Source: Gammaproteobacteria bacterium
Lineage (GTDB): Bacteria > Pseudomonadota > Gammaproteobacteria > Eutrophobiales > Eutrophobiaceae
Direction: 5' to 3'
DNA length: 64,000 nt
NCBI GenBank assembly: GCA_963422205.2
Contig: CAXMWX010000001.1
Span: 512,001 to 576,000, forward strand
Made by a program: the position numbers and the translations under genes
Notes under the pieces: model-generated
What the model was told of the DNA's origin: nothing
Database searches by the model: none
Seen by the model: only the letters and a program-made list of their open reading frames with translations
Shown here: piece after piece, positions 8,698-63,996 of the stretch
How positions within the stretch are numbered: position 1 is the first letter of the stretch
Layout of the letters: every line of letters begins with the position of its first letter

Positions 8698-9705
8698 ATG
8701 CCCCATCACATTGAATCTATCGCCATCTGCATCCCCACCTTCCGGCGACCGCAGCCGTTAGGCCAGTGCCTGGCCTCCATCGGGCAGTTGCAGTTGCCCG
8801 AACAGATCAAGGTAATCGTGATTGTGGTGGACAATGATGTCGAACAATCCGGGCGCGATGCCTTTGATGCGGCCGCTGCCCGGCTACCGGTCGCCGCCCA
8901 TTATCATGTCCAACCAGAGCGCGGCCTGGCCGCCGTCAGAAATGCCCTGCTGGAACACGCCCTGGCACAGCAGGTGAGTCATATTGCCTTTATTGATGAT
9001 GATGAACAGGTGCATCCAGCCTGGCTGCTGAAGATGATCGATGCCCTGCATCGTTATCAGACCGATATCATTACCGGGCCGGTCATCCAGATGTCAGCAT
9101 ATTCTCCTGCCCCCAATCCCCCCCTCCCGAATGCGTCCAGCAACAAAGTCACGCATCAATCAATAGGGATAACTCTCCTTAACTATTTGCTTATCTGCCC
9201 GAATGCGTCCAGCATCAACATCACGTATCAATCAGGCGATACCCCCAGACGCATTGGCACGAACAACGTCTTGTTCAGCATGCGGCTGGTCTCTGAATTG
9301 GGATTGCGCTTTGATCCCCGCTTTAACTTTACTGGCGCTGAGGATATGGATTTCTTCGAGCGTACCAGAGCACAGGGCGCCACCGCGGCATGGCTGGCCG
9401 AACACCTGGTCTTTGAGAGAGCCGTGCCAGCCAGAGAAACGCACCGCTACCTGATCTATAAAAGCTTCGCCATTGGCGTGGGTGGCGCGCGGTTCTACAG
9501 GCGGCATTATGGCATCGTGCGGGTCTTTCTGTATTTCACGCTGCTGGCCATGGTAAGATCCATTCAGGCGATGCGGCATCTCTTGCTGGCGATCATCACC
9601 TCCCCCGCCCGCCATGCGAATGAAGCTGCGTGTCAACTGGCGCGCATCGCCGGGCTTTTTTGCGGCCTGGCAGGCATCACCACCGAGCCTTACCGCTATG
9701 ATTAA
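8698..9705 (+). CDS. Family 2 glycosyltransferase (ExoM-like)
   Basis: ICIPTFRRP, VVDND, RGLAAVRN, AFIDDDE, FDPRFNFTGAEDMDFF motifs; carries a 24-aa internal insertion. Confidence 0.88.
   Translation: MPHHIESIAICIPTFRRPQPLGQCLASIGQLQLPEQIKVIVIVVDNDVEQSGRDAFDAAAARLPVAAHYHVQPERGLAAVRNALLEHALAQQVSHIAFIDDDEQVHPAWLLKMIDALHRYQTDIITGPVIQMSAYSPAPNPPLPNASSNKVTHQSIGITLLNYLLICPNASSINITYQSGDTPRRIGTNNVLFSMRLVSELGLRFDPRFNFTGAEDMDFFERTRAQGATAAWLAEHLVFERAVPARETHRYLIYKSFAIGVGGARFYRRHYGIVRVFLYFTLLAMVRSIQAMRHLLLAIITSPARHANEAACQLARIAGLFCGLAGITTEPYRYD
9126..9234 (+). repeat. 37-bp direct repeat flanking a 35-bp AT-rich insert (72-bp period, in frame)
   Basis: Copies at 9126-9162 and 9198-9234 match at 33/37 positions; insert at 9163-9197. 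Confidence 0.85.
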
Positions 9706-9791
9706 GCGCCGTTATGTACGATAAGAACACGCATCACACGGGCATGTAGAGGCGGCGGCCATTGACCTCAAATAAGTGAATGCCATCAGTG

Positions 9792-10772
9792 CTACTCTGA
9801 CCATCGCTGCCGCAGCCGCTCCGCATCTTCTTTGGTGTAGAAATGGCGAAAGAACTTAGAGCCCAGCATCTTGTCCAGATGCCACCCGGGCAGCTTGACC
9901 TCGTTTTTGAACAATGCGTAAGAATCGGCGATTGCCCTGGTCTTCTCGGCGGTGACTTTTCGATAGCCCATCTCGAAGGCATCCAGACCGAGAAAATCCT
10001 GCACCCGCTGCGCCTTGGTTGCATTGGGCAGGCTGGATTCCAGGATCATCATATCGGCCTGGTTGAGGCAATAGTAAGCCACTTTCTCATCGGGGAAGGG
10101 TTGCTCGTAGACATCCAGGGACAGGTATTTTTTTACACAGTTATCGAACCAGTCTATAGCGAAGAATTGTGCATCGTAACGTTGAAGAAACATCTGCCGC
10201 AGTTGTGGCGGGTCAAGGTTCTGGATCTGCTTGATATGCTCATCTTTATACAGCCAGCCATCCTGCGGGATCACCAGCCTCCTGTGCAACCTGGAATCCG
10301 CCGGCAGTGCGGCGATGCCTCGCTTGATGCGGTCTTTGACCAGAATCGGCAGTCTGCTTGCCAAGGCGTGTTTCAGCGGGTTACTTTTCAATGGACGCGC
10401 ACCAAGAATACGTTGCAACCTTGTTTCATAGAAAGCCGCGACATTGCGGCCAATCGGCTCACGGATGGGGGTGATGATCTTCAGCCGGTTGTCATCCGTA
10501 TCCGCAGCTGCGGCGGCGGGGAGCGTCCCGTGTACATAACGGGCCAGCAGGTAATCACAGAAGTCAGCCTTGTAATGCCCATGCAGATGGGGAAGCCTGA
10601 TATTTACAGGCTTTTTTTCGGGCGGCAATTTTTCCATTCTGATGGTCAACCCGGGGTACTGGTCAAGCAGCGCACGGTACAGAGACGTGGAGCCAACTTT
10701 GCCGGCGCTGAGTATTAGCACCGGCGGTTTGCGGCAAAAGTCGGCGAATATTTTTGTCCTGGATCTAAACAT
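9792..10772 (-). CDS. Sulfotransferase-fold putative capsular polysaccharide synthesis protein
   Basis: GKVGSTSL (5'-PSB-like) and KIITPIREPIGRNVAAF (3'-PB-like) motifs, plus WFD...LSLDVYEQPF. Confidence 0.65.
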   Translation of the reverse strand: MFRSRTKIFADFCRKPPVLILSAGKVGSTSLYRALLDQYPGLTIRMEKLPPEKKPVNIRLPHLHGHYKADFCDYLLARYVHGTLPAAAAADTDDNRLKIITPIREPIGRNVAAFYETRLQRILGARPLKSNPLKHALASRLPILVKDRIKRGIAALPADSRLHRRLVIPQDGWLYKDEHIKQIQNLDPPQLRQMFLQRYDAQFFAIDWFDNCVKKYLSLDVYEQPFPDEKVAYYCLNQADMMILESSLPNATKAQRVQDFLGLDAFEMGYRKVTAEKTRAIADSYALFKNEVKLPGWHLDKMLGSKFFRHFYTKEDAERLRQRWSE

Positions 10773-39677: not shown

Positions 39678-42600
39678 ATCCTGATGAGGCCGAAGCGTCA
39701 TGCTTCGGAATACTTATTATCTATATGGCAGGGGTGGGTTATTCGTGTAGCTTCAATGAGGCCGAAGCGTAATGCTTCGGAATACACTTGGCGAGCTAAC
39801 TTCTCTGTTGGATCAATGGCTAGCTTCAATGAGGCCGAAGCGTAATGCTTCGGAATACAAATAGGAGATGATTATGTCGATGAATAACAATGGTGCTTCA
39901 ATGAGGCCGAAGCGTAATGCTTCGGAATACCTGCGCTCAATCGCGGCAAGCATCTTGCGAAAACCCAGCTTCAATGAGGCCGAAGCGTAATGCTTCGGAA
40001 TACGTAAGGTTGTACAAGCGATCAACAGTGGTGTTGCAATGCTTCAATGAGGCCGAAGCGTAATGCTTCGGAATACGTAAGGTTGTACAAGCGATCAACA
40101 GTGGTGTTGCAATGCTTCAATGAGGCCGAAGCGTAATGCTTCGGAATACTTCAAAAAAGTGTGGCTACCACAAGAGGGTGGGCAAAGCTTCAATGAGGCC
40201 GAAGCGTAATGCTTCGGAATACAGCATAAGTCATACCTAGAACCTCACTTCGATGCTCCGCTTCAATGAGGCCGAAGCGTAATGCTTCGGAATACGTTCA
40301 AGGCCTGGTCTAGCGGACGTATGCGGGTATTGCTTCAATGAGGCCGAAGCGTAATGCTTCGGAATACATAGCTAGTTATTCCGTGCCGATGCCTGCGCTA
40401 ATGCTTCAATGAGGCCGAAGCGTAATGCTTCGGAATACCAGTGAACGCCCGCATCCATGCGGGCTTGGATACGTCCTTCAATGAGGCCGAAGCGTAATGC
40501 TTCGGAATACAAACTCGAACGCGGAACCGAAACTGTAGGAACCTTCGCCTTCAATGAGGCCGAAGCGTAATGCTTCGGAATACAAAAAAGTCTATAGCTT
40601 TCGAAGTAGCCTCTGTAGCACCTTCAATGAGGCCGAAGCGTAATGCTTCGGAATACTCCAGTAACACGGATCAGATACCAGAAAATAAATTATCCCTTCA
40701 ATGAGGCCGAAGCGTAATGCTTCGGAATACAGGGCATGGTGTTTTTAACTCGCGCAGGCTTCGACGCCCTTCAATGAGGCCGAAGCGTAATGCTTCGGAA
40801 TACCATGTCTTCACCTTGTTCATTGTCATAGCCCCCCGTCCTTCAATGAGGCCGAAGCGTAATGCTTCGGAATACGCAGGCCAGTGGCCAGCACATCAAC
40901 CCCGGCATGGTACCTTCAATGAGGCCGAAGCGTAATGCTTCGGAATACAGCGATGCGAGTGGCTGAAATCCTAGAGATCGACCCAGCCTTCAATGAGGCC
41001 GAAGCGTAATGCTTCGGAATACACAATTTACCTTCGCGAGCCTTCTCGGTCTTAATCTCCTTCAATGAGGCCGAAGCGTAATGCTTCGGAATACATGCTT
41101 AACGAAATGCTTAACGCTGGTCACTGGCACTTCCTTCAATGAGGCCGAAGCGTAATGCTTCGGAATACGCTACGGCGCCCGGAATAACCGGCCACCACGA
41201 CGAAACCTTCAATGAGGCCGAAGCGTAATGCTTCGGAATACCAGACGATGTAGCACGTGTGCAGCGAGGATTAGATCCTTCAATGAGGCCGAAGCGTAAT
41301 GCTTCGGAATACGCGTTATATCTTGATCTCTTAGCGCTCGAATATCCAGCCTTCAATGAGGCCGAAGCGTAATGCTTCGGAATACCCGGTGATCATAATG
41401 GGGGTTGATTTCGGCAAGGTCTCCCTTCAATGAGGCCGAAGCGTAATGCTTCGGAATACTTTTCGTTTGCGTTATCTTTTGCCGCCGCCCCCCAACCTTC
41501 AATGAGGCCGAAGCGTAATGCTTCGGAATACATAACCGGCCACCACGACGAAAAAATTCGTCCCGCTCCTTCAATGAGGCCGAAGCGTAATGCTTCGGAA
41601 TACCTTAGTCGGTTTTACCTCGCTTGCCCCCGCCGTTGCGCCTTCAATGAGGCCGAAGCGTAATGCTTCGGAATACTTGCTGAACCAGACGATAAAACAA
41701 AATTATCACGGGCCTTCAATGAGGCCGAAGCGTAATGCTTCGGAATACCACGATCGCTACGTGTCAGCGTAGGCACCGTACGCAGCCTTCAATGAGGCCG
41801 AAGCGTAATGCTTCGGAATACAAACGTGCAGGGTTAAAACCGGTGTTGCTGACAGTGCCTTCAATGAGGCCGAAGCGTAATGCTTCGGAATACTTTGTTT
41901 AGTGTGGTTTTTAATTTTTTCAGAGGCTTACCTTCAATGAGGCCGAAGCGTAATGCTTCGGAATACTCCAGCACCTTCTCGATCATCGCCAAAGCCCGTG
42001 TCCCTTCAATGAGGCCGAAGCGTAATGCTTCGGAATACACTACGGCGAAATTAAATTGTTAGCTGGCTACACAGCCTTCAATGAGGCCGAAGCGTAATGC
42101 TTCGGAATACACTACGGCGAAATTAAATTGTTAGCTGGCTACACAGCCTTCAATGAGGCCGAAGCGTAATGCTTCGGAATACAGTTAGTTTTGATTTTTT
42201 TAGTCGCTTAAACTCGATCCTTCAATGAGGCCGAAGCGTAATGCTTCGGAATACCCAGGAGTAGATGGTAGAGGCTTGTTCTTGATCGCCACCCTTCAAT
42301 GAGGCCGAAGCGTAATGCTTCGGAATACAGCAGATTCTAAGATGGTCTGGTTAGCAAGACGTATGGCCTTCAATGAGGCCGAAGCGTAATGCTTCGGAAT
42401 ACCTGATGGATGTTGATCTGGTCGAGGCCGCCGCCAAGCCTTCAATGAGGCCGAAGCGTAATGCTTCGGAATACGCTATATACAAGTTGCAACAACCGCG
42501 TCAAATCAACGTCCTTCAATGAGGCCGAAGCGTAATGCTTCGGAATACGAGCGGGAGCTGGCCGAGGAAATCGGCAAACGTGTACCTTCAATGAGGCCGA

Positions 42601-45600
42601 AGCGTAATGCTTCGGAATACCGATCAAGTATCTATCGTACGCGTCACGTTAGACGCCCTTCAATGAGGCCGAAGCGTAATGCTTCGGAATACGATGATCC
42701 GAATATCTGCCCAAGGAACCTATTATTATCTTCAATGAGGCCGAAGCGTAATGCTTCGGAATACGTACGCCGGGCGGCGTATGGTTCCGCGACGTCAGAT
42801 TCTTCAATGAGGCCGAAGCGTAATGCTTCGGAATACGCGGCGCTACCCTGGATCAAATAATTCAGCAACTTATCTTCAATGAGGCCGAAGCGTAATGCTT
42901 CGGAATACAACAACCTACTTGTTGCGCCTGATGATTTTACCGTCTCTTCAATGAGGCCGAAGCGTAATGCTTCGGAATACCTGCGACTCGCCCAGCTACA
43001 AGCGCAACAGTGTCTGTCTTCAATGAGGCCGAAGCGTAATGCTTCGGAATACGCAGTCTTTTAATTCGCGTTGCCACTTACGCAGCTATCTTCAATGAGG
43101 CCGAAGCGTAATGCTTCGGAATACAACGCAGTCATACGCAAATTGAAAGTATCACCAGGCATCTTCAATGAGGCCGAAGCGTAATGCTTCGGAATACTAC
43201 CATAGAGGCGATGGGTTATTTTCGTTTTTTCGACTCTTCAATGAGGCCGAAGCGTAATGCTTCGGAATACCTGCGACTCGCCCAGCTACAAGCGCAACAG
43301 TGTCTGTCTTCAATGAGGCCGAAGCGTAATGCTTCGGAATACGCAGTCTTTTAATTCGCGTTGCCACTTACGCAGCTATCTTCAATGAGGCCGAAGCGTA
43401 ATGCTTCGGAATACTAGCAGCATAACCTACTCGCCCACCTGCTCACCTGCTCTTCAATGAGGCCGAAGCGTAATGCTTCGGAATACACCACGATTACCAT
43501 GCAACAACACTTCCGGGTATGGGCTTCAATGAGGCCGAAGCGTAATGCTTCGGAATACGATTTAAAAAGCGGAACCTAGGTCCAAGCATAGGCTAGCTTC
43601 AATGAGGCCGAAGCGTAATGCTTCGGAATACATTTGCCTAGTTATGCTTTTATTTTTCCTCGCGGTAGCTTCAATGAGGCCGAAGCGTAATGCTTCGGAA
43701 TACGAGGACAGGGCGTATATCATGCCATCCGAATTTCATGCTTCAATGAGGCCGAAGCGTAATGCTTCGGAATACAATTATCGTGATTATTAATAATATC
43801 TTGATGGGGGTGCTTCAATGAGGCCGAAGCGTAATGCTTCGGAATACGTCGCAGCAGCCGATCCCCCTAGCATGTTGCCGCGGCTTCAATGAGGCCGAAG
43901 CGTAATGCTTCGGAATACCGGGAACTGTATAGCGAACGTGACGGCGCCTATGAACGCTTCAATGAGGCCGAAGCGTAATGCTTCGGAATACGTACAGAGC
44001 TACTGTTGCTAATTCTGTCGGCGTGTAGCTTCAATGAGGCCGAAGCGTAATGCTTCGGAATACTGTTTTACCCTAGGCCTTACCCTAGGTGACCTCATTT
44101 GCTTCAATGAGGCCGAAGCGTAATGCTTCGGAATACCGTTTTAGCCCTGTTTTACCCTAGGCGCCCTCATTTGCTTCAATGAGGCCGAAGCGTAATGCTT
44201 CGGAATACGACGACATCAAGACGGGCAAGGTATACGCTGATCATGCTTCAATGAGGCCGAAGCGTAATGCTTCGGAATACTGCCCATCATCTAGCGACAC
44301 GACGATCTTGACGCGGGTGCTTCAATGAGGCCGAAGCGTAATGCTTCGGAATACATATTTTTTCGAGTTGCTGATCTAATTATTTTCAGCAGCTTCAATG
44401 AGGCCGAAGCGTAATGCTTCGGAATACCTCATCCTCACGTAGTACCGCCGCAGAATTGTTGCGGCTTCAATGAGGCCGAAGCGTAATGCTTCGGAATACG
44501 GAGAAAAAAATGCCAAGATCAAAAAAACAAATACAGCTTCAATGAGGCCGAAGCGTAATGCTTCGGAATACATCTGCCTAGTTATGCTTTTATTTTTCCT
44601 CGCGGTAGCTTCAATGAGGCCGAAGCGTAATGCTTCGGAATACCGGGAATACCAAGATGCTTCTCGGCCACTTCCAGATCGCTTCAATGAGGCCGAAGCG
44701 TAATGCTTCGGAATACAAACTATCACCAACTGACTAATCACTTAGGTATACGCTTCAATGAGGCCGAAGCGTAATGCTTCGGAATACTTAATCTTCATAA
44801 TTAATGTAGTCCTCCACTAATTGCTTCAATGAGGCCGAAGCGTAATGCTTCGGAATACTTCCGCTGTTGGTAGCGTCCACGATTACTGTATCAAGCTTCA
44901 ATGAGGCCGAAGCGTAATGCTTCGGAATACGTTTTACCCTAGGCCTTACCTTAGGTCACCTTACTGCTTCAATGAGGCCGAAGCGTAATGCTTCGGAATA
45001 CTTCAAGATCACCGTTGCAAGGGCGGGGGGTGCTAATGCTTCAATGAGGCCGAAGCGTAATGCTTCGGAATACATCATTTCCGCCAAAAACAAATGACAA
45101 GCGCCCCTTGCTTCAATGAGGCCGAAGCGTAATGCTTCGGAATACTAAACGGCGCTGATCGTAACGACATCATTGCCGACAGGCTTCAATGAGGCCGAAG
45201 CGTAATGCTTCGGAATACTTAAATCTGCTGCTGATAGATATCTCCACATACCGCCGGCTTCAATGAGGCCGAAGCGTAATGCTTCGGAATACGCGAATAT
45301 CAGCAGCTCGTTAGCGCAGGCATCCGCAAGGCTTCAATGAGGCCGAAGCGTAATGCTTCGGAATACACGCATCCATGCGTGCTTGAATACGTCAAAATAT
45401 GGCTTCAATGAGGCCGAAGCGTAATGCTTCGGAATACAAAGCCGGGAGAGATCCAGACTCAGAAATTGCCTTCGCTTCAATGAGGCCGAAGCGTAATGCT
45501 TCGGAATACTTCACTTTGCGGTCTTATAGCTCGTCAACATTCGACAGCTTCAATGAGGCCGAAGCGTAATGCTTCGGAATACCAAAATTATCTCGGGTAA

Positions 45601-48600
45601 GTCCCGGCGCAGCTTGCAGCTTCAATGAGGCCGAAGCGTAATGCTTCGGAATACGGCGGTAAACCAAGCGCAAAAAGAAGTGACGGTGAACGCTTCAATG
45701 AGGCCGAAGCGTAATGCTTCGGAATACTGCGTCACTTTTCTTCGAATGCCACGTCGTCCTCACAGCTTCAATGAGGCCGAAGCGTAATGCTTCGGAATAC
45801 CAAGCCGGGAATCAACCAAAGGTACATAGAATACGGAGCTTCAATGAGGCCGAAGCGTAATGCTTCGGAATACTTTTTAGTGGTTATGGGAAACGAAAAT
45901 AACATGAATTGCTTCAATGAGGCCGAAGCGTAATGCTTCGGAATACGGGCCCGCTACCAGGGAATAGAATCCCTCCAACAGTAGCTTCAATGAGGCCGAA
46001 GCGTAATGCTTCGGAATACCAACAGGTGTTCCCAACACCACGTCACGATCAATGGCGCTTCAATGAGGCCGAAGCGTAATGCTTCGGAATACAGGTTATC
46101 TAAGCAGACGCCAATAACTATAGACGTAGCTTCAATGAGGCCGAAGCGTAATGCTTCGGAATACGAAGTGATCCAGACTCGGAAATTGCCCGCAAAGTGT
46201 GCTTCAATGAGGCCGAAGCGTAATGCTTCGGAATACCGTGACATAGCGATCGGTATCGTCGAGCGAGAAATGCTTCAATGAGGCCGAAGCGTAATGCTTC
46301 GGAATACCACTACTAGCGGGAGCAACAGCCAAAAAATCGGCACGGCTTCAATGAGGCCGAAGCGTAATGCTTCGGAATACAGGGTCGCCAGCAACGCTGT
46401 CTGTACGCACCAGCCGGCTTCAATGAGGCCGAAGCGTAATGCTTCGGAATACTCCCTAGCTAGTTGCGCCGATGAGCTGTACGCCTTGGCTTCAATGAGG
46501 CCGAAGCGTAATGCTTCGGAATACGCAGTAACACGTGATCGCCCTTCAGGATCATACGCATGCTTCAATGAGGCCGAAGCGTAATGCTTCGGAATACTCC
46601 CTAGCTAGTTGCGCCGATGAGCTGTACGCCTTGGCTTCAATGAGGCCGAAGCGTAATGCTTCGGAATACGCAGTAACACGTGATCGCCCTTCAGGATCAT
46701 ACGCATGCTTCAATGAGGCCGAAGCGTAATGCTTCGGAATACCCCAGATGTCGTAATACATTTCCTTTGCTTTGTCGAGCTTCAATGAGGCCGAAGCGTA
46801 ATGCTTCGGAATACTCTACCTGCAATTGCATTGCCAGGATTCGCATTACCGCTTCAATGAGGCCGAAGCGTAATGCTTCGGAATACGCCCATCATCTAGC
46901 GACACGACGATCCTGATCCGGACGCTTCAATGAGGCCGAAGCGTAATGCTTCGGAATACGGCAGAAGCGAGTAACACTGATGCAATACCAGCAAGGCTTC
47001 AATGAGGCCGAAGCGTAATGCTTCGGAATACCGGATCAGATTGATCGGGCGGGTGGCGTCGACAAAAGGCTTCAATGAGGCCGAAGCGTAATGCTTCGGA
47101 ATACGGCTAGGCCGACTAACCGATCACATAATTCAATCAAGCTTCAATGAGGCCGAAGCGTAATGCTTCGGAATACAGCGGAACCCCGTCCAGCAAAAAA
47201 GAAATACGTCCCCGCTTCAATGAGGCCGAAGCGTAATGCTTCGGAATACCACAACTGCCCCCGGTAGAATGGGAATAACTCAGTGGCTTCAATGAGGCCG
47301 AAGCGTAATGCTTCGGAATACGATGATACCTAGTTGCTTCGCATACAGCGATCCAGCGCTTCAATGAGGCCGAAGCGTAATGCTTCGGAATACGTACAGA
47401 GCTACTGTTGCTAATTCTGTCGGCGCGCAGCTTCAATGAGGCCGAAGCGTAATGCTTCGGAATACTGAGTATACTACTGGTGGAGATGGGAAAACTAAAA
47501 GCTTCAATGAGGCCGAAGCGTAATGCTTCGGAATACTTGGGCGCTTGGGGCTAATGCCGATCCGATACCAGGCTTCAATGAGGCCGAAGCGTAATGCTTC
47601 GGAATACGGCGTTGGGTTTTCGCAAGGCGCTCTTGCGACCCGCGCTTCAATGAGGCCGAAGCGTAATGCTTCGGAATACATCAGATTGATCGGGCGGGCG
47701 GCATCGGCAAAAGTGAGCTTCAATGAGGCCGAAGCGTAATGCTTCGGAATACCGCCGCGGAAAAGGTACATAGATCAATGCCGCTTCGTGCTTCAATGAG
47801 GCCGAAGCGTAATGCTTCGGAATACCGCCACACTAACTGTCTCGCCACGTGACACCCGTGGCTTCAATGAGGCCGAAGCGTAATGCTTCGGAATACGTGA
47901 TGAAGCGGTGCAGATATTAGATCAACTAGGATGCTTCAATGAGGCCGAAGCGTAATGCTTCGGAATACATACGCGTAGACGCCCGGTCGTGTAGTTCCAC
48001 AAAAGCTTCAATGAGGCCGAAGCGTAATGCTTCGGAATACCATTTTTTTCTTGCGGTCTTTCTCGATCACAACAACGCTTCAATGAGGCCGAAGCGTAAT
48101 GCTTCGGAATACTACACTGGCCGCAAGGAACATCGATTGGCATATCGGAGCTTCAATGAGGCCGAAGCGTAATGCTTCGGAATACGCTTAAACTCGATAA
48201 AAAAAATTTCGCCGGAAGACGCTTCAATGAGGCCGAAGCGTAATGCTTCGGAATACGGCCATGTTTGCTTTTTTCCTCGTGGTAGCTAATTAATGCTTCA
48301 ATGAGGCCGAAGCGTAATGCTTCGGAATACGGCCGTGACTGCATACCCATCACCGGATCGAAAGACGCGCTTCAATGAGGCCGAAGCGTAATGCTTCGGA
48401 ATACGACCCTAGATCAAGAAATTGAAAAGATTGAAAACGAGCTTCAATGAGGCCGAAGCGTAATGCTTCGGAATACAAGTTTTCCCTCGCGAGCCTTTTC
48501 GCTCTTTATCTGGCTTCAATGAGGCCGAAGCGTAATGCTTCGGAATACGAAGTTTTCCCTCTCGAGCCTTTTCGCTCCGCACCTGGCTTCAATGAGGCCG

Positions 48601-51450
48601 AAGCGTAATGCTTCGGAATACTCATCATGTATTGTTCTTGTCGTTTCTTTCTGCCTAGCTTCAATGAGGCCGAAGCGTAATGCTTCGGAATACCAAGCCC
48701 TACGTATCTGGTGCTATTACCTTCCATCGTGCTTCAATGAGGCCGAAGCGTAATGCTTCGGAATACTACTGCAAAAAAAATTAAGTGAATCAGGGATCAA
48801 ACGCTTCAATGAGGCCGAAGCGTAATGCTTCGGAATACCAGGGTATTATTGTAACTGGTGTAATTTTTCAAAATCGCTTCAATGAGGCCGAAGCGTAATG
48901 CTTCGGAATACCAGCTACGGGGTCGATCTTTTTTCCGATCTTCGCCGCTTCAATGAGGCCGAAGCGTAATGCTTCGGAATACCCGATGATATTACGGGCC
49001 ACAGTAATAGGGAGTTAGCGCTTCAATGAGGCCGAAGCGTAATGCTTCGGAATACAGAGTGTCGATAATATCTCTGCGATTAGACCAAACCGCTTCAATG
49101 AGGCCGAAGCGTAATGCTTCGGAATACTTTTGTTCTGTGGTTTGGTCGCCGTCTAACTATGTCGCTTCAATGAGGCCGAAGCGTAATGCTTCGGAATACC
49201 TCGCATTTGTTCCTGTCTTAATATTTGCCCGCCAAGCTTCAATGAGGCCGAAGCGTAATGCTTCGGAATACTCGGCATATTCACCAGGTCGCTGGTGGTG
49301 AGGCTCCAGCTTCAATGAGGCCGAAGCGTAATGCTTCGGAATACAAACCAGTTCACTCCAGAGACTCTTGGTCGTAGATCGCTTCAATGAGGCCGAAGCG
49401 TAATGCTTCGGAATACTCCAGTTTTTAGCTGCTCTGCGTTTATGCGACGCAGGCTTCAATGAGGCCGAAGCGTAATGCTTCGGAATACACACCATGCGTT
49501 AGGTGTGGAGGTGCCGGAACTAGCGCTTCAATGAGGCCGAAGCGTAATGCTTCGGAATACAGCTCTCCCGCCTATACCACCCGATGTTGCTGGCGGGGCT
49601 TCAATGAGGCCGAAGCGTAATGCTTCGGAATACCCGCCAAGCGTTCATCGATGACGGTTTCGTAGATCCGGCTTCAATGAGGCCGAAGCGTAATGCTTCG
49701 GAATACACGGCGAGCTGGCGCTGAACGGCAATCCGATTAATGGGCTTCAATGAGGCCGAAGCGTAATGCTTCGGAATACTGCCGGTATCGCATCGCTGTT
49801 ACCACTACGCGCCCAAGCTTCAATGAGGCCGAAGCGTAATGCTTCGGAATACTCCCGCAGACTGATATAGAGTCACCAGTAGAGGCAGAGCGCTTCAATG
49901 AGGCCGAAGCGTAATGCTTCGGAATACGAAAATAATTAGATCAGCAACTCGAAAAAATATAGGTGCTTCAATGAGGCCGAAGCGTAATGCTTCGGAATAC
50001 AAACGTTACGGGAGAGGAAGAAGAAAATGAGTATGAAGCTTCAATGAGGCCGAAGCGTAATGCTTCGGAATACTTCGCTGCCGCCGCAAACACTCGATCA
50101 AACGGGTGATTTGCTTCAATGAGGCCGAAGCGTAATGCTTCGGAATACTGGAGACCCTACAGTTTATTTTGTACGCTATAGCGGGCTTCAATGAGGCCGA
50201 AGCGTAATGCTTCGGAATACCGAATCGTAGTGTAGTGGATATGCTTACCTCGCAGGCTTCAATGAGGCCGAAGCGTAATGCTTCGGAATACCTGACTTTG
50301 GGCGCAACCAACAATTTGAGGTCGACGGTGCTTCAATGAGGCCGAAGCGTAATGCTTCGGAATACAAAAAAACAAATACAGAATTGGGATGAGGAACTAG
50401 CGCTTCAATGAGGCCGAAGCGTAATGCTTCGGAATACCTTCGTAAAACCATGGTTAGAAAAATTTAATGTTCCGCTTCAATGAGGCCGAAGCGTAATGCT
50501 TCGGAATACGCTGCTGAGATAGGGCAAGCGATCAACGGCACGCAAGCTTCAATGAGGCCGAAGCGTAATGCTTCGGAATACTATTCCCCCCGCCCTATAC
50601 TGTGTTTGTCGGATCGAGCTTCAATGAGGCCGAAGCGTAATGCTTCGGAATACCAGTCGGCGATGTTGCTACAGTAGCGACACAAACAAGCTTCAATGAG
50701 GCCGAAGCGTAATGCTTCGGAATACAGGATGATCCAGACCAGGGCGGGGATGGTGATGCTGGCTTCAATGAGGCCGAAGCGTAATGCTTCGGAATACACA
50801 GTGCAGATGAGGTTGTGTATACTATTTTTTCGGGCTTCAATGAGGCCGAAGCGTAATGCTTCGGAATACCCTAGGAGTCAATTCGTAGGGGCGCTGATAG
50901 GCCTCAAGCTTCAATGAGGCCGAAGCGTAATGCTTCGGAATACGCATCGCAGGGCGTTGCCAGGGGTTGCCTTGCTCGAGGCTTCAATGAGGCCGAAGCG
51001 TAATGCTTCGGAATACATCCTCGAGTCTGTAGATTTCAGCAACGGAGTGCTCGCTTCAATGAGGCCGAAGCGTAATGCTTCGGAATACAATTGGAGTAAG
51101 TTTTACTCTTATGTCTCTCGCCAGGCTTCAATGAGGCCGAAGCGTAATGCTTCGGAATACCGGAAGGTAAAACAAACATTCTATCCGGCCACGATCTAGC
51201 TTCAATGAGGCCGAAGCGTAATGCTTCGGAATACAGCGATCGACAACACCGCCTCTTGGGCGCGTAGTGGGCTTCAATGAGGCCGAAGCGTAATGCTTCG
51301 GAATACACAAACCACCGCCGAGAACAGCCGCAGTTCCAGGATGCTTCAATGAGGCCGAAGCGTAATGCTTCGGAATACGCAAGCGATCAACGGCGTGCAA
51401 CAAAAATATTCGTAGCTTCAATGAGGCCGAAGCGTAATGCTTCGGAATAC
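39678..51450 (-). CRISPR. Type I-G CRISPR array, about 163 repeats and 162 spacers (35-39 bp)
   Basis: 36-bp repeat, GTATTCCGAAGCATTACGCTTCGGCCTCATTGAAGC on the minus strand (hairpin CCGAAGC...GCTTCGG, ATTGAAG 3' end). Degenerate trailer repeat at 39678-39713; leader lies next to cas2. Manual count. Confidence 0.99.
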
Positions 51451-51656
51451 AGCCTTGCCGTATCACCTGCTATGGCAGGGTCTAAAAACTCCCAGTGCGA
51501 GCGCTGATCAGCCAAGACCGAAATACGCATCCACAATTTATGTTGTGCATACATAACAACAGCATAACCCCTTGTTTGTTAAAGAGCAACACCAATGCGA
51601 GCGCTCCCCGGTGATAGCATCATCACCGCCGCACTCGCTAACGTCAGGCAAGTTCA
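51451..51656 (-). promoter_or_regulatory. CRISPR leader
   Basis: Between the first repeat and cas2; TGCGAGCGCT twice (51496-51505, 51596-51605), inverted GCACTCGC near 51631, AT-rich IHF-like segment TAACCCCTTGTTTGTTAAAG. Confidence 0.85.
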
Positions 51657-51947
51657 TCATACGATGATCGGTTCCCGAACAACAGCGTTAAATTCCTTGC
51701 CGAGGCTGGTCACTCTCGGCGCCACCGCATCGGCAGGCCCCAGATCCAGTATCAAGATATGATCCTCTCGATGGTGGATCAGCTCATCCAGCATGGCGAT
51801 GAGCTCCGCATGGCGCCTGGCGGACAAACGGCACTGGAAGACAGATAATTGCAACCATTCGCCATAGCCACGCAGCAGCGTGAATATGGCGCGCCCGCGC
51901 CTGGCATCGCCGATGTCGTATGCGATCACATAAAGATGCTCATTCAT
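51657..51947 (-). CDS. cas2: Cas2
   Basis: YVIAYDI, GEWLQLSVF; 96 aa; follows cas1. Confidence 0.96.
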   Translation of the reverse strand: MNEHLYVIAYDIGDARRGRAIFTLLRGYGEWLQLSVFQCRLSARRHAELIAMLDELIHHREDHILILDLGPADAVAPRVTSLGKEFNAVVREPIIV

Positions 51948-51953
51948 GTCGCC

Positions 51954-53699
51954 TCATCTGGTTATCAGTTGTGGAAAGGCGATCATATCGCCTAACAGAA
52001 ATCTGGAGAGCAACCTGGCCTGCAATTCAAGCAGGCGCCGATAACTCAGCCGGTAGCCAAACAGCGGGTGCGTTATCTCCTGGCTTAGGCGTCTTTCATA
52101 GGCGGCGATAAAACGCTTGCGCCCATCGGCGGTTAAATTAACACTGCCAGCGGCGGCGACAAAGTCGCTTGGCCTGAGCTCGCCATTGTTAATCACGGTA
52201 AGCACGGTGGAGTCCGCTATGAGTGGTCGGAACGGCTCCATCATGTCCAACGCCAGGGCCGGTCGGCCATAGCGGGGCTGATGATAAAACCCGCGGTAAG
52301 CATCAAAGCCGACTGCCGTTAAGGTCACCGTCCAGGTCTTCACCAGCAAGGCATAGGCGTATGAGAGCATGGCATTGACCGCATCGGCGGGCGGGCGGCG
52401 GTTGCGGCTGGCAAAATCAAAGGTGATGTTCTGGTGTGCTTCCTGGTGTTTAATGAGATAGTCAAATGCGCCGAAATAGTTCGCTGCCGCGTTGCCCTCC
52501 ACCCCCAGCAGCTGCTGGATGGATGAGGCCCGGCCAGCCTGGTCGGCATCGCGCCGCAGGGTCTTTATCAGTGGCTTGCTGCTGTGTTCTGCCTTCCAGT
52601 TACGGCGCAACAAGGTACGGCAATTCAAAATCTTCGCACGCACCAGGCCCCTGGCTAACGTCAAACACACCTGCTCATCAAAACTCGCCTTGTATTGGGC
52701 GGTGCGTATTTCAACATTCTTATGACCCACGCCAATGCTGTGTCCTAAAAACCAGCCGCCGTAAGAGTGCCAGCTCACCGGTATTTCCCGCCGCATCAAC
52801 TCATGCAGGGTCGGCGTTGTCAGATAAATATTGCCCATCAATATCACCTGCGAGACATCCACCAGACGGGCGTGGGTCACCGGCTCATCGCCAATGGAAA
52901 TCTCCAGCCGCTCGCCGCGCTTGCGAACAGCCGCCTTATGCGCCTGAACATACAGCGGCAGGGCGGTATCATGGCCGATGGTCAGCAGCCTTGGCGGGGT
53001 ATCGGTTCTGTGAAAAAAATTCACCTCATCCGGCAGGCAAATACCCACCAGCGAACAGCGCGGACACTTAGGGCTGTCTTCGAGCGGGGGCGGCATCTGG
53101 CCGCCCGCGGCGATCAACCGCATCCCATTGATCGCGGACAATGTCGCATTATGCAGTTCCTCATCAAATCGTACCGCTACCTTCTCTTTCGAGCCGGCAA
53201 AATACAGAAAACCCGAATCGCACTCATAGCCATGCTCTTGCAGCAACATGCCTTGCAGGCACAGTTGCACGCGCTCCGGCGCATAAGCGCCCTTGGCAAC
53301 GTGCGGTCGTTTGCCTTTTTTATAATCCACCGGTATCACCTTGCCCGCCTCCGCCTCCACCAGGTCCAGCTTGGCAATGACGCCGAGGCGCTCTGATGAC
53401 AGCGTGACGGAGCGTGAATGAAAAGCATCATCCTGGTTCAGCTCGGTCGCTGCCGGTAATTTGTTATCCGGCGTATCAACGCGCCGATGCTGATAACGGC
53501 CGGCCACGGTATCGGCGGATTCAGCCCATTCGCCCTGCACCCATTCAAGGTAGGCAAGGCGCGGACAATACTGGTATTCATTCACCATCCGTGCAGGCAA
53601 CAGCGGCAGCGCTGCTGAGAGTTCCGGTGCAGGCAAGGGCAATGTTATCTGGGTATCCGTCATGTCAGAACATTGGTTTATTTTTCCGACCGCTATCAT
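51954..53699 (-). CDS. cas4/cas1: Cas4-Cas1 fusion (type I-G)
   Basis: Cas4 YCPR...DYKKG...CPRCSLVGIC; Cas1 LLGVEG, RNRRPPADAVNAMLSYAY, LALDMMEPFR. Start may be 53663. Confidence 0.96.
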   Translation of the reverse strand: MIAVGKINQCSDMTDTQITLPLPAPELSAALPLLPARMVNEYQYCPRLAYLEWVQGEWAESADTVAGRYQHRRVDTPDNKLPAATELNQDDAFHSRSVTLSSERLGVIAKLDLVEAEAGKVIPVDYKKGKRPHVAKGAYAPERVQLCLQGMLLQEHGYECDSGFLYFAGSKEKVAVRFDEELHNATLSAINGMRLIAAGGQMPPPLEDSPKCPRCSLVGICLPDEVNFFHRTDTPPRLLTIGHDTALPLYVQAHKAAVRKRGERLEISIGDEPVTHARLVDVSQVILMGNIYLTTPTLHELMRREIPVSWHSYGGWFLGHSIGVGHKNVEIRTAQYKASFDEQVCLTLARGLVRAKILNCRTLLRRNWKAEHSSKPLIKTLRRDADQAGRASSIQQLLGVEGNAAANYFGAFDYLIKHQEAHQNITFDFASRNRRPPADAVNAMLSYAYALLVKTWTVTLTAVGFDAYRGFYHQPRYGRPALALDMMEPFRPLIADSTVLTVINNGELRPSDFVAAAGSVNLTADGRKRFIAAYERRLSQEITHPLFGYRLSYRRLLELQARLLSRFLLGDMIAFPQLITR

Positions 53700-54808: not shown

Positions 54809-57717
54809 CAGGCAACCTGCCGTTCAATTTGCTGGTGCTTTTGCTCTTCTTCACTGCTTCTCCAATCCGCCAGGCGCATCAAAGTCTCCAGCCATGCCAA
54901 CCCCCACCAGCCATAACGGCGCACCAGCAGCCAGAAGCGCTCACTGATGCCGCTATCTATACGTTCAAGCCCTGTATTAGTATCGGCACTGAGTTCATGA
55001 CTATCAAAAGTCATTGTCACTTTTTGCGGTGCTTGATCGTGAATGACCGGTGCAAATGGACGGCAACGACCATGATGGCTGGCGATAAGGTGCAATACCA
55101 AGTCCGAGTCATGCGCCTGGCGCAGTAATACCGGTGCGCTTTCCGCCAGGCGCACGGAGAGCAGTTCATGCCGACCGCCTTTGGGGTAGCGGCTGCTTTT
55201 ACGGGCGGCGCGACGCTGCCTTGGGCTTGCCGATATTCGTCCGGACTTGGCAAGTAACTTTCCTGATGCTTTTGCCAGCCAGGGATTACCCTGATGCAGC
55301 AATGCCTGAAAGCGAGGATCGATCTTGCCCAAATCGTGTAGCCGTGCCGCCAGGATGATATCCTCACGCAGTTTCACATCCAAACCCTCAGTAAAACATC
55401 TCGCCCAGCGTCCCACGCCTTCCAGGTGTTCTGTCAATTCCACCGGCACAGTGGCCGAGGATAAATCATCTTCATCGCTGAAGGATGAATGCTCTTCATC
55501 ACTCGGCAGGTTTTTACTACCCTGCAATATCCAGCCGCCACAGGGATGCGGCAAACAGCGCAGTTTTTTATCGCTTGCAAGCGCCGAAGCGATTTCTTTC
55601 AGCCAGTCCGGCTCCGCCGTCTTGCTGAGTGTATCCAGTGGCTGACGTAACACCTGATACGCATCGTCTGCTGGAATATCGGTCTGCTCAACAAACTGCA
55701 TAAAGAAATCACGCATCTCCCCCGTCGGCCAGCGCACCAACAATGCCGGATGAATGCGTAATACAGGGCGTCTTTTCATTTTGAATACGGCCTGCTCGGC
55801 GCAATCTTCCCAAGCACCTTGCGGAATATGCCCCAGGTCATCCCAGCCTTTTTGCGTTGCTGGTAATACCACCACATCACCGGGACGCAGGTCGGCAGGT
55901 TCTTGGTAAATCCGGCTTTGCTCATCTTCCGGGCCGAACCAGCGAATGAATCGCCTCTCCTGATTGCTCTTGCTCTGCACATCGTCAGCCAACCTCTGCC
56001 CGTCAACATCACTGAGTTGATCAGTGACATCGCTGCCCTGTAACCATGAACGCATCACCGCCAGAGGCACCGGCATACACTCCATCGCCAGCGGCATGCA
56101 CAGCCCCAGCGCTTCTATGCAGGATGACTCATCCTTTATTATCAAATCAGCACGCCAGCACACCAGCACATCCGCCGGGCCACGCTTTGGACCGTGCAGA
56201 AAAACGGCAACATCGGGATCGGGTGCCGGTTTGGGCGAGGTTTGCACCAATAAATCCAGATGGGAAGGCAACAGCACCGGCGCATTTTGGGCAGGCGTGG
56301 AGAGTGGTTGTAATAATTCCCGACAAGCATCTTCCTCAGCAGGCAGTAACTGCTGAAATTGCTTGATGCCGAAATCAATCTGTTCTCGTCCATCTTTGGT
56401 TAGCCATTGCCAGGTGTTGGCCAGAGCCTCGCCGTACACCGGATCGGGCGACTCTGTTTTAATTTGATCCTGCCGCACCATGATCACGCCACGGGCATCA
56501 ATCTGACAGCCACCGCGATTCAAGCGCCCGAACCGTTGCCGCAAGGCATCCAGCCCGGCACACTCAGTAACCAGCACATCAAAATCCAGATTGGCACCCA
56601 CTTCCAGGGTCTGCGTGGCCACCACCACGACCGGTCGTTCGAGGCTACGCTCAGCATCACCGCTACGCACCGCCAGTTTATGTATCCATTCACCAACGAT
56701 GGCATCCTTGTCCACAGTACGCATACGACCGGTGAGCAACACACTGTCAATATCACCCCGGGCCTGCAAATCCTGGTAAATCAGACATGCGGTTTTCACC
56801 CGGTTGACGATCACACCTATTGCCTGCACACCGCTTTCAAGGAAGATCTCTATCTCGCCGTTCATCGCCTTGGCCAATTCGGGTAGCGCCGCCTTGTCTT
56901 TGGCTTTTTTCGCCTCCTTTAACTCAACCGGCTTGGATGCCATGATTCTCGGCCCCAGCACCTCATGGCTTTTATCATCATCGTCAATCCTGAATATCTC
57001 ATCCTCGCTCACCTCATCCGGCGGTGTTGCCGACAGCATGGTATGGACGAAGGGGGCGGCCAGCTTTTCGCTTTCCGCCCATCGGCGGTATTTGCCAATC
57101 GCCTGCAAGGTTTGTCGGAACGGATTGGCACAATGTGCCTCATCAAGGATAATCAGAGCATCGTTGGCCGCCATTGCCGCGTGTATGGGCACCGTATAAT
57201 CAGAGCGTAAGCCGTAACCCCGGTATAACAGCCTAGAGCCGATCTGATCGACCGTGCTGGCGATAACGCAGGGTTGCAACGGATTTCTTATCCATTGATC
57301 ATCGCGATAGATCCCGCCACGTAGCTGCACACAGGCCAACGGCAAGGGGCCGCTTGCCAGTGTACGCAAACGTTGGGCAACGGTGTGCAATATACCCACC
57401 TCGGCTTGCTCAAGTTTGGCGGCGATTCTCTGCGCCCGTTCATAAGCCTCATCAACGATGATCCGGCGATCAACCACAAAAAAGATCCGCCGGGGCGCTG
57501 CACACTGGGCTAACTGCTGCTCTGCCTGACTGGCCAGGGCGAACAAGGCGATATCCATGCAAGCGGTTTTACCAGCACCAGTGGGCACGGCAATACAGGG
57601 TGGCCACGGCTCGCCCTTCGCGATTCGCAAGGCCAGTTTTTTCTGCCAGGGGAAGGGAGCATAGCCATGCAGTGCCTGAAAAAAATCCGTAAACTGCTCT
57701 GCTTGCAAGGCTGGCAT
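54808..57717 (-). CDS. cas3: Type I-G Cas3 (helicase first, HD domain C-terminal)
   Basis: PFPWQ, VPTGAGKT, LDEAH, SATP, QRFGRLNR; C-terminal HL...LHDLGK...HE...HHG...LADW. Confidence 0.96.
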   Translation of the reverse strand: MPALQAEQFTDFFQALHGYAPFPWQKKLALRIAKGEPWPPCIAVPTGAGKTACMDIALFALASQAEQQLAQCAAPRRIFFVVDRRIIVDEAYERAQRIAAKLEQAEVGILHTVAQRLRTLASGPLPLACVQLRGGIYRDDQWIRNPLQPCVIASTVDQIGSRLLYRGYGLRSDYTVPIHAAMAANDALIILDEAHCANPFRQTLQAIGKYRRWAESEKLAAPFVHTMLSATPPDEVSEDEIFRIDDDDKSHEVLGPRIMASKPVELKEAKKAKDKAALPELAKAMNGEIEIFLESGVQAIGVIVNRVKTACLIYQDLQARGDIDSVLLTGRMRTVDKDAIVGEWIHKLAVRSGDAERSLERPVVVVATQTLEVGANLDFDVLVTECAGLDALRQRFGRLNRGGCQIDARGVIMVRQDQIKTESPDPVYGEALANTWQWLTKDGREQIDFGIKQFQQLLPAEEDACRELLQPLSTPAQNAPVLLPSHLDLLVQTSPKPAPDPDVAVFLHGPKRGPADVLVCWRADLIIKDESSCIEALGLCMPLAMECMPVPLAVMRSWLQGSDVTDQLSDVDGQRLADDVQSKSNQERRFIRWFGPEDEQSRIYQEPADLRPGDVVVLPATQKGWDDLGHIPQGAWEDCAEQAVFKMKRRPVLRIHPALLVRWPTGEMRDFFMQFVEQTDIPADDAYQVLRQPLDTLSKTAEPDWLKEIASALASDKKLRCLPHPCGGWILQGSKNLPSDEEHSSFSDEDDLSSATVPVELTEHLEGVGRWARCFTEGLDVKLREDIILAARLHDLGKIDPRFQALLHQGNPWLAKASGKLLAKSGRISASPRQRRAARKSSRYPKGGRHELLSVRLAESAPVLLRQAHDSDLVLHLIASHHGRCRPFAPVIHDQAPQKVTMTFDSHELSADTNTGLERIDSGISERFWLLVRRYGWWGLAWLETLMRLADWRSSEEEQKHQQIERQVA

Positions 57718-59297
57718 TACGAGCGTTCTTCACGCATGGGACGCAACAGGCCATAGCCACGAAAGCGCCCGGCACCCAGCAATATAGGCCCCTGTACCGG
57801 CTGGGAAAACTCCAATACTACATGACTATGGCGCATGGTACCGCCACCCTGCTTGCGTTGCATGGGGGGATAAACATGCTGAGGCGGTACGCCGATGATC
57901 GGGCTGATACCTGTAGCCAAAACATGCGCTGGTCGCGGCAGGCTGATACGCTCACAGGCCAAGGTGAGCATTCCGGCAATTTGTTTGTCTTTATCCTTAC
58001 CCTTGGGATGCCGATCAAACACCACGGGTGTGACCGAGGCCCAACAGGTAGCGGGGCGATTCCAGGTATCCGCCCTCAAGGCAAACGGCGGAAAATCAGC
58101 AAGTTCCAACTGCACTTGCCAATCAAACAAACGGCCATGATAAAGCCGAAGTGGCTGTTGATGACCGGCATCATCGAATTGCGTCAGCCAGCCGAAATAA
58201 TGATGCAAGGCATCTTGCGGTGCGGTTCTCGGCAGGGCGATGGCAACGCCAAGCAGGTGACCATCGGCATGTTCACGACCCACATGCGGCAGGGGAAACA
58301 TGGCGATATGGGGTTGGCGGGATGGCGCACCTTGGCGGCTGTGGCCGCTAATCCACTCAGGGATTGGCGGTTTGCAATTCTTCAACAGCGTATCTCGCAG
58401 CGTTTTCGTCAGTAGCAACGTGCTTTCAAGCCCTAGCGGTCTGCCGCTGATGCGCTTGATGATAATCAATCTGGGATCAAATAAACTGCCCAGTATTTCT
58501 CTGGCAGCACCGCTGTCTTTAATTCTTGCATAGCCCTGCGCTCTTCCCCGCTCAGGGCGCAGGCGCTTTGGTTCGCCGGCAGGAAATTCGTTGTTAATCT
58601 GTTCTTTTAATCTGCGTCTATCATTTCTTGTGGCGCTTTCATGTTCTGCCTTCAACCCATGGTATTCATCAATCGCCGCTTCGTTATAAAAGCGTTTAAG
58701 CGCATCTAACCGGCCAGGCCACGGAACACGGAGGCTGTAATCACGTCGGTCGTCACTCGGCACAAGACTTCCCCCGGGCGGATTCTGACAGAGCCAGACC
58801 TGCACCAGCGATGCCGAGTGTCCAAGCGAAGTCACATTGCGGCATAAATGAACCAGAGCGTTTTCCCATTCCAAAGGCTGGCTATCTGTCCAGATGAAGT
58901 ACACCCGGGGGTCATCGGGGATGGCAACGGGGAAATGCCTGGGTTGCCGTGAGCGCTTTTCCGGTAACAAGGAAAGACCGCTTTTTAACTGTTCTTTTGA
59001 GGGAGTTCCGTTTTCTCTTAATCTTGGCATCTGCACATCATTCACCGGTACATAGCTGGTCACTGTTTTTCGCGGTTTTGCCAGTGAGCAGTATAATGAT
59101 GGTGCGCCCTGATGCTCCAGCCATTGTAACGCCTGTTCGGCCTCGGTCCTCGGGACATCATCAGCCTGAAAACAAGCGGCGGTCAAGGCCATAAACAAAC
59201 GCTCTGGATGCGGCGGCCATTCGGCCTGCTGTTTCTTGGCCCCGTCCGCCGCCGCCATTGACCAGCCCATCAGGTAATGTACGCCGATGGTCAGCAT
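57717..59297 (-). CDS. csb2: Csb2 (Cas5-Cas6 fusion), intact
   Basis: EWPPHPERLFMAL, YVPVND, WASVTP, C-terminal G-loop LGAGRFRGYGL. Confidence 0.92.
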   Translation of the reverse strand: MLTIGVHYLMGWSMAAADGAKKQQAEWPPHPERLFMALTAACFQADDVPRTEAEQALQWLEHQGAPSLYCSLAKPRKTVTSYVPVNDVQMPRLRENGTPSKEQLKSGLSLLPEKRSRQPRHFPVAIPDDPRVYFIWTDSQPLEWENALVHLCRNVTSLGHSASLVQVWLCQNPPGGSLVPSDDRRDYSLRVPWPGRLDALKRFYNEAAIDEYHGLKAEHESATRNDRRRLKEQINNEFPAGEPKRLRPERGRAQGYARIKDSGAAREILGSLFDPRLIIIKRISGRPLGLESTLLLTKTLRDTLLKNCKPPIPEWISGHSRQGAPSRQPHIAMFPLPHVGREHADGHLLGVAIALPRTAPQDALHHYFGWLTQFDDAGHQQPLRLYHGRLFDWQVQLELADFPPFALRADTWNRPATCWASVTPVVFDRHPKGKDKDKQIAGMLTLACERISLPRPAHVLATGISPIIGVPPQHVYPPMQRKQGGGTMRHSHVVLEFSQPVQGPILLGAGRFRGYGLLRPMREERS

Positions 59298-59300
59298 TAC

Positions 59301-60527: not shown

Positions 60528-60631
60528 GCCTATCTCCTCATCGGAAAGTGAAATACATTGAAAAATTAACGCATTATATTATATTTCGCCCCACTAGGCT
60601 CATAACACCTGTTCGAAATCCATATCATTCA

Positions 60632-60766
60632 TCACAGCATCACTGCCGTCTTTCCCATGCCAGTGGGTACGGCCAGCACGGTCGGCCAGGCCGCCTCGAC
60701 CAGACGGGATTGATACGCATAGGGTTCGTCCCCCGTCGCCTTCTTAAAGAATTGTGAATAATTCAT
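60632..60766 (-). pseudogene. cas3: N-terminal 44-aa relic of another Cas3
   Basis: Manual translation MNYSQFFKKATGDEPYAYQSRLVEAAWPTVLAVPTGMGKTAVML*: Q-motif plus Walker A, paralleling the N-terminus of the intact Cas3. Confidence 0.8.
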
Positions 60767-60769
60767 GAA

Positions 60770-61963: not shown

Positions 61964-61971
61964 GACTAGCC

Positions 61972-63996
<2,025 letters not shown>

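Follow-up and report, generated by a model that had tools for sequence, protein, structure and literature searches.

Off-target integration of spacers by CRISPR systems is established in the laboratory. Off-target, or "non-canonical," integration that spawns neo-CRISPR loci is credited in the consulted parts of later work (10.1101/148544, PMC7054753, PMC11788318) to Nivala, Shipman, and Church (2018). As excerpted there, the events were obtained in the Escherichia coli type I-E system with Cas1-Cas2 overproduced, and "circumstantial evidence" was given for two other species (10.1101/148544); the citing excerpts describe the natural evidence as only circumstantial. In vitro, the Cas1-Cas2 of Pyrococcus furiosus makes off-target attacks in pairs, one on each strand and a repeat length apart, also on CRISPR-less DNA, according to the available part of PMC6698737. 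No natural integration within a retained coding gene and no natural type V-A or I-G off-target footprint was found in the literature searched, a limited collection that gives no proof of absence in print. The locus described here lies in the window, a 64,000-nt stretch of the genome of a Gammaproteobacteria bacterium, and consists of a 35-nt insert between two copies of a 37-nt direct repeat, inside the gene for a GT2-family glycosyltransferase (the GT2 locus) and 42 kb from a type I-G CRISPR array. The earlier note on this DNA, made from the sequence alone, took it for an off-target acquisition, a reading that we keep tentatively. If true, the case would be a natural example of off-target integration with an unusual outcome, the addition of 24 residues to an enzyme.

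A repeat-insert-repeat in a glycosyltransferase gene

The features of the locus are as follows.

8698..9705, + strand: intact gene for a GT2-family (ExoM-like) glycosyltransferase of 335 aa (open reading frame [ORF]; PF00535, PF13641)
8698..9762, + strand: copy 1 of a 1065-bp gene cassette; the second copy, at C7:2545-3609 on another contig, is 99.9% identical
9126..9162, + strand: R1, the upstream copy of the 37-nt direct repeat, encoding PNASSNKVTHQS
9163..9197, + strand: X, the 35-nt insert (GC, 12/35), encoding IGITLLNYLLIC, with its codons completed by the first base of R2
9198..9234, + strand: R2, the downstream copy of the 37-nt direct repeat, encoding PNASSINITYQS

R1 and R2 are identical at 33 of 37 positions, and their starts are 72 nt apart. 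The mismatches fall at repeat positions 18, 22, 23, and 29 (4/37, or 11% divergence), and all four are nonsynonymous (N>I, K>N, V>I, and H>Y). The borders of the repeat are sharp because the adjoining bases differ (T/G before and A/G after). Such a repeat is not a product of chance: the probability of at least 33 matches in 37 is 2.9e-16, and about 6e-9 occurrences would be expected in 64 kb over 300 offsets. The whole structure keeps the frame of the ORF at 8698-9705, to which it adds 72 nt, or 24 aa, without stop codons. Only two copies of R are present; in sequence they are unlike the I-G repeat, and both are within an ORF. All of these basic measurements in the earlier note, namely the 37-bp repeat, the 35-bp insert and its GC content, the period, and the in-frame addition of 24 aa, proved exact.

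X is a foreign-looking insert, unrelated to the target and its flanks. Compared with the remaining gene, its GC content is low (0.343 versus 0.575). It matches the 35 nt upstream at 9 positions (P = 0.61) and the 35 nt downstream at 8 (P = 0.91), so the weak similarity said to extend past the repeat is not significant; compared with R itself, P is 1.0, and over all comparisons with flanks and R, P ranges from 0.55 to 1.0. Full-length X occurs in the 3.0-Mb genome only in the two copies of the GT2 gene. No template for it was found elsewhere in the genome, where no partial match is better than one of 14 nt (E, 0.21), and a search for a local template within 10 kb of either copy found no 9-mer excess over chance.

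The host gene product matches PF00535 (E, 5.8e-16; 59.3 bits versus a cutoff of 23.3) and PF13641 (E, 1.4e-10), and some of its homologues carry the source name ExoM. Residues D100, D102, and E103, an acidic DxD-type motif, are invariant across 15 aligned sequences. By these sequence criteria, the protein is assigned to the GT2 family of glycosyltransferases, with a GT-A fold, and is ExoM-like. R1-X-R2 corresponds to residues 143 to 179. In an AlphaFold (AF2) model, which is confident outside the loop (mean predicted local distance difference test [pLDDT] score, 85; predicted template modeling score, 0.84), residues 139 to 174 have a pLDDT below 50 and lie between strands 129-132 and 191-194, which places the segment in a loop predicted to be disordered. 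The relatives of this protein in the PDB are GT2 enzymes. In the nearest solved one, the chondroitin synthase K4CP (2z87), the loop that joins the GP strand to the NN(V) strand is likewise enlarged at this point, by an insertion of ∼37 residues with an unrelated sequence. This loop can thus accommodate extra residues.

Relatives of the enzyme lack the segment. The closest non-self homologue among 120 matches is 45% identical and 305 aa long, and in an alignment with 14 homologues the host protein alone has ∼31 extra residues, which comprise R1, X, and most of R2. Even with 24 aa removed, its loop is still ∼6 residues longer than in the aligned relatives. The 3′ end of R2 (YQS) aligns with a conserved Y/R-K/R-S/T-G motif of the homologues; therefore, R2 is the copy that continues the ancestral sequence on the right. 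A search of 61 genomes gave 17 loci in 16 related genomes that match both halves of the protein, and at all 17 the alignment is interrupted between query residues 128-144 and 175-187. A 46-residue segment around the insertion was found in no other protein of 184 to 587 aa in a collection of 5.8 billion proteins. The earlier note had looked to homologues for a single repeat copy with no insert. The segment is missing from 14 of 14 aligned homologues and from the 17 loci; no orthologue above 45% identity was found, and the homologues without the segment are too distant to define the sequence before insertion.

The gene is also part of a larger duplication. The cassette extends from the ATG to 57 nt beyond the stop codon, and its two copies differ at a single base, gene position 978 (window position 9675). 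Both contain R1-X-R2, and their flanks are unrelated on both sides. The second copy is flanked by a Dam-type methylase gene on one side and ABC/FecCD transporter genes on the other. Next to the first copy lies an NKWYS-family gene (9789-10255), the start of which recurs on contig C6 at 94.6% identity. The locus from 8698 to 10255 is a mosaic. The contigs of two public runs, which come from one study of the same organism, perhaps of the source sample, and were built by an independent assembler, contain the same 1065-bp unitig at ∼1.65 times the depth of its flanks and with no indel. Of three listed runs, these two carry the sequence, and no RNA run is among the carriers.

The resident type I-G system

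As described in the accessible part of PMC6547450, the I-U/I-G system of Geobacter sulfurreducens has mostly 36-bp spacers, a 205-bp leader, and a TTN protospacer-adjacent motif (PAM). The window carries the following array and adaptation genes.

39750..51450, − strand: type I-G CRISPR array, with counts of 162 repeats of 36 nt and 161 spacers
51451..51656, − strand: I-G leader, ∼205 nt, between cas2 and the first repeat
51657..51947, − strand: cas2 (PF09827, E 1.7e-14; TIGR01573)
51954..53699, − strand: cas4g/cas1g fusion with Cas1 and Cas4 domains (NF049935; 826.8 bits versus a cutoff of 560)

Beside the array, on the same strand, are genes for cas2, cas4g/cas1g, cas3g, Csb1, Csb2, and Cas8g2, and the array and its adjoining genes are classified from these assignments as a type I-G system. 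The match in unit size to the GT2 locus is close. The 161 array periods are 71 (14 cases), 72 (79 cases), 73 (51 cases), 74 (15 cases), and 75 nt (2 cases), so that the period of 72 nt at the GT2 locus equals the modal unit of the array, as the earlier note had stated. Spacers are 35 to 39 nt long, and 14 of the 161 have the 35 nt of X. Their mean GC content is 0.489 (standard deviation, 0.098); a value as low as that of X (0.343 or less) is found in 16 of the 161 (10%), compared to 5.8% of genomic 35-mers. The repeat has 35 fixed bases and one variable end base, which reads G in 120, C in 31, and T in 11 cases on the + strand and adjoins each spacer (as the first base on the + strand). This base could be derived from the PAM and enter with the spacer, in which case only 35 nt would be duplicated at each integration.

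Several further features of the system were seen. At 57717-63996, the operon has, besides Cas8g2, two genes for Csb2 (Cas5/6), at 57717-59297 and 60770-61963, and two for Csb1 (Cas7g), at 59301-60527 and 62168-63070, a sequence-based assignment that amounts to a duplicated effector module. Six spacer sequences are present twice, some as neighboring pairs (45/46 = 49/50 and 93/94 = 95/96), and since neighboring pairs recur, the array appears to have undergone internal duplications. A degenerate terminal repeat, detected only when 5 mismatches were allowed, lies at 39684-39717, ∼33 nt past the leader-distal end of the array.

Origin of the 72 bp

The 72 bp, that is, one copy of R plus X, may have been left by an old off-target integration; the integrase would be of the Cas1-Cas2 type, in the simplest case the resident I-G Cas4/1-Cas2. 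We would put this somewhat short of an even chance. An unrelated insert between repeats is the signature of insertion between staggered cuts and not of tandem duplication, and no known one-step mechanism other than off-target integration predicts how long both the duplication and the insert are. That the resident Cas machinery made the insertion is plausible. In the proposed sequence of events, the integrase would have attacked the two strands of the GT2 gene ∼36 nt apart, and an AT-rich prespacer of 35 to 36 nt would have been joined between the attacked strands. Gap repair would then have duplicated the 36- to 37-nt target on both sides, and 72 nt, a multiple of three and free of stop codons, would have entered a length-tolerant surface loop. 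The enzyme may have survived and the insertion may have been fixed because the addition was in frame and stop-free and fell in a tolerant loop. The two copies of R would later have diverged at the four nonsynonymous sites, and the whole gene would recently have been copied to its second locus.

A further, weaker hint in favor of integration comes from R1, where two 6-bp segments (repeat positions 6-11 and 26-31) form a perfect inverted repeat, which is exactly symmetric within a 36-nt target and gives a hairpin of −4.1 kcal/mol (z, −2.3). A stem of at least 6 bp centered within 1 nt is found in 1.5% of random genomic 37-mers, and one located anywhere is found in 7.2%; the feature was noticed post hoc. 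A non-CRISPR inverted repeat attracts the E. coli Cas1-Cas2 in vitro, as cited in the part of PMC5389526 consulted, where the sequence is said to matter too.

A number of observations weigh against an origin by I-G integration. First, the site does not look like an I-G target. No significant likeness was found between R and the I-G repeat (P = 0.17 to 0.82) or between the flanks and the I-G leader (P = 0.84 and 0.91), and the best match to the I-G leader-repeat junction is 9/20 (P = 0.044, uncorrected for the four or more configurations and the several choices of border). In the excerpted results of PMC6698737, the off-target sites of P. furiosus resemble the repeat at its borders and center, and the available text of PMC13034035 states that the repeat ends and the mid-repeat matter in I-G. 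Second, the duplication measures 37 nt compared to 36 nt for the I-G repeat, and it is off by 2 nt if the variable end base is derived from the spacer (35 nt duplicated); accordingly, one or two border bases would have to be chance matches. A deviation of 1 nt may be tolerable because spacer-side integration by I-G is imprecise in vitro: it occurred at the correct site in only 60 to 70% of events in the portion of the Methanosarcina barkeri study that was available (PMC10504553). Third, no empty site, with a single R and no X, was found, the nearest homologue being 45% identical, and no allele lacking the 72 bp was found in the contigs of the two public runs. Because both copies of the cassette carry R1-X-R2 and no allele lacks the 72 bp, the insertion is older than the gene duplication. 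The event must be old since the copies of R differ by 11%, and an I-G system need not have been in the genome then. Fourth, X has no credible protospacer in phages or plasmids (blastn; best E, ∼4), and the exact 35-mer has no match in viral, metagenome, and genome contigs. The TTN-flanked match that the earlier note had suggested looking for in phage or plasmid data was likewise not found. This negative carries little weight because genuine spacers find no match either: 0 of 161 real I-G spacers match phages or plasmids, and 0 of 3 real spacers checked match viral contigs. Finally, it was geometry that singled out the GT2 locus in a very large scan, which makes the match in geometry weak evidence.

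A genome-wide scan for similar structures, as the earlier note had proposed, was made. It required an identity of at least 32/36 at periods of 37 to 300 nt outside the array, a threshold that the GT2 locus passes; a threshold of 22/24 misses this locus because its four mismatches cluster. The scan gave 44 loci or rows, 22 of them tandem-like and 22 of them repeat-insert-repeat structures. When the inserts were sorted by likeness to their flanks and to the repeat and by copy number, five clean repeat-insert-repeat loci with unrelated inserts were obtained (repeat length in nucleotides, period).

GT2 locus: 37, 72
C11:120865: 35-38, 62
C5:267129: 95, 114
C7:779305: 25, 63
C3:442944: 31, 54, in three copies

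Two of the five have the dimensions of a resident CRISPR array, either the I-G or the V-A one, which speaks for integration. The other three have a non-CRISPR geometry, which means that other mechanisms also build such structures in this genome. No further locus with I-G geometry was found, and the additional duplications of 36 to 37 nt with inserts of 35 to 38 nt that the earlier note had anticipated did not turn up in the scan. One candidate, C7:729479 (36 plus 35 nt; period, 71), was rejected. It is a tandem repeat of 71 bp that was interrupted later, since the final 21 nt of what looked like an insert are found again at C7:728418-728438, ahead of a foldback insertion. In this region (C7:728418-729585), the first copy of the 71-bp tandem is split by a foldback element of ∼1.03 kb with inverted arms of 437 bp (97.5% identical).

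Taken together, the off-target acquisition proposed in the earlier note stands in its geometry, in the foreignness of X, and in the presence of an I-G module; no empty site, protospacer, likeness of the site, or second I-G locus was found for it, and we therefore hold it only tentatively, at a little less than even.

The alternative that survives best is a one-step template switch unrelated to CRISPR, in which, in the course of replication or break repair, a filler of ∼35 nt was copied from an unknown or lost template and synthesis resumed 36 to 37 nt upstream, so that the match in unit size would be coincidental. The three clean loci of other geometry, with repeat length and period of 95 and 114, 25 and 63, and 31 and 54 (in three copies), favor it, as do the lack of any resemblance of the GT2 site to repeat, leader, or junction and the large look-elsewhere effect that comes with a locus picked for its geometry. 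Slippage at a hairpin could just as well be favored by the 6-bp inverted repeat in R. However, the mechanism needs two template switches, the 3.0-Mb genome holds no template for X, with 9-mer matches near either copy at chance level, and X is markedly more AT-rich than the genome. In addition, such a switch predicts neither a duplication of 36 to 37 nt nor a filler of 35 nt. It is a serious possibility all the same, if a doubtful one.

Two separate steps are unlikely. In this case, a 36-nt (12-codon) tandem of R would have been split by a 36-nt insertion, or X would be ancestral and R would have been copied across it. The loop is predicted to be disordered and varies in length across the family, the K4CP insertion lies at the same place, and R, X, and R each comprise ∼12 codons; the ∼6 residues by which the loop remains longer without the 24 aa also suggest a history of length change. 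Against this, two independent events would be needed, one of them exactly at the junction, and the origin of X would still be unexplained, as X resembles neither R nor any other protein of the size range searched.

The caveat of the earlier note, an ordinary tandem duplication of 72 bp in which the half outside R decayed beyond recognition, is very improbable and was rejected. The period is a multiple of three, and full tandem repeats with periods of 71 to 72 nt do exist in the genome, at C5:316461 and C7:729479, but X matches its flanks at chance level (9/35 and 8/35) although R is conserved at 33/37, and at least 26 mismatches in 35 under equal divergence have a probability of ∼2e-18. An assembly or sequencing artifact, for which the presence of the gene on two contigs at 99.9% identity might speak as possible redundancy, can be dismissed, as the copies are flanked differently on both sides and the independent assembler recovered the same indel-free unitig at ∼1.65-fold depth in two runs of one study, perhaps of the source itself.

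A type V-A counterpart and described systems

A second CRISPR-Cas system, of type V-A, lies at C7:457043-463879, with intact cas4, cas1, and cas2. Two overlapping ORFs (profile positions 3-793 and 909-1287) make up its cas12a, a split that may come from a frameshift or from an error in sequencing. In the array, there are 13 repeats of 36 nt and a degenerate one, with spacers of 25 to 28 nt and periods of 61 to 64 nt. One of its spacers (C7:463196-463222) and an I-G spacer (window 45002-45037) share 27 identical bases on opposite strands, and since they share these bases, the two systems appear to have sampled the same protospacer region.

At the C11 locus (C11:120865-120961), two identical copies of a 35-nt direct repeat enclose an unrelated 27-nt insert; the period is 62 nt, and the locus is unique in the genome. 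It is intergenic, between an SRP54/FtsY-type gene and an M16 peptidase gene. Its geometry of 35 plus 27 nt matches the V-A unit of 36 plus 25 to 28 nt. Moreover, the left flank and the start of its R1 match the V-A leader-repeat junction at 14 of 20 positions (empirical P = 3e-5, or ∼1e-4 after four configurations), and this match covers the leader's final six bases together with the repeat's initial three. Compared with the I-G junction, the same site scores 5/20, and four control loci score at most 8/20 with the V-A junction. According to the part of PMC13034035 available, V-A Cas1 recognizes the leader-repeat junction (about three leader bases plus the repeat ends), and a ruler sets the second site; the configuration of the match is the one that this model predicts. 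Mimics of the V-A junction would be available as targets, since 158 genomic sites match it at 14/20 or better. A genome of the same genus (G001) has at this locus the left flank and the 5′ half of one copy of the repeat, with no direct repeat; its divergence is too great for an empty site to be defined from it, and the distance to the downstream gene is the same as at C11. A 24-mer of the insert had no exact match in three contig collections. From its geometry and junction, the C11 locus is judged a probable natural V-A off-target spacer integration, and it can serve as the example of a well-supported case. Judging from this locus, stray integration probably occurs and is fixed in this lineage, which lends indirect support to integration at the GT2 locus.

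The C11 and GT2 loci are both repeat-insert-repeat structures in which the insert is unrelated and the unit is of the same size as in a resident array. They differ in that the repeats at C11 are identical, and thus recent, and in that C11 is intergenic and mimics a junction, whereas the GT2 locus has no such mimic, a difference that adds to the case against integration there. That both adaptation modules left fixed off-target integrations, V-A in the ftsY/M16 peptidase intergenic region and I-G in a glycosyltransferase gene, where it would account for 24 aa of loop, is conceivable but distinctly less than an even prospect. If it is true of both loci, adaptation would be a natural process that repeatedly causes insertional mutations and now and then yields new protein sequence. 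A fixed natural footprint in an intact gene would show that stray integration happens at native expression and can survive selection and that the coding sequence of a protein can be extended by CRISPR adaptation. The finding bears on the cost of adaptation to the host genome and on the birth of new arrays. Three tests, namely unit size, an unrelated insert, and junction mimicry, separated the strong candidate at C11 from the geometry-only GT2 locus, and these can be used across genomes to obtain the frequency of such footprints.

Finally, the GT2 locus can be set beside the described systems, as far as the consulted parts of their reports allow. The off-target sites of P. furiosus are repeat-like, whereas the GT2 site has no significant likeness to the I-G repeat or junction. 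In canonical I-G integration, as in G. sulfurreducens and M. barkeri, the spacer enters at the leader-repeat junction and the CRISPR repeat is duplicated, whereas here coding DNA is duplicated; the resident system is like these in its 36-nt repeat, its predominance of 36-bp spacers, its leader of ∼205 nt, and its Cas4-Cas1 fusion plus Cas2, and its unit equals the 72-nt period of the GT2 locus. In form, the locus resembles the neo-CRISPR events of E. coli, in which a spacer-sized insert is likewise flanked by a duplicated, repeat-length, non-CRISPR target in the chromosome. If the GT2 locus did arise by integration, it would differ from those events in being natural, old, and of type I-G and in lying within a coding gene, in frame, with the enzyme intact.

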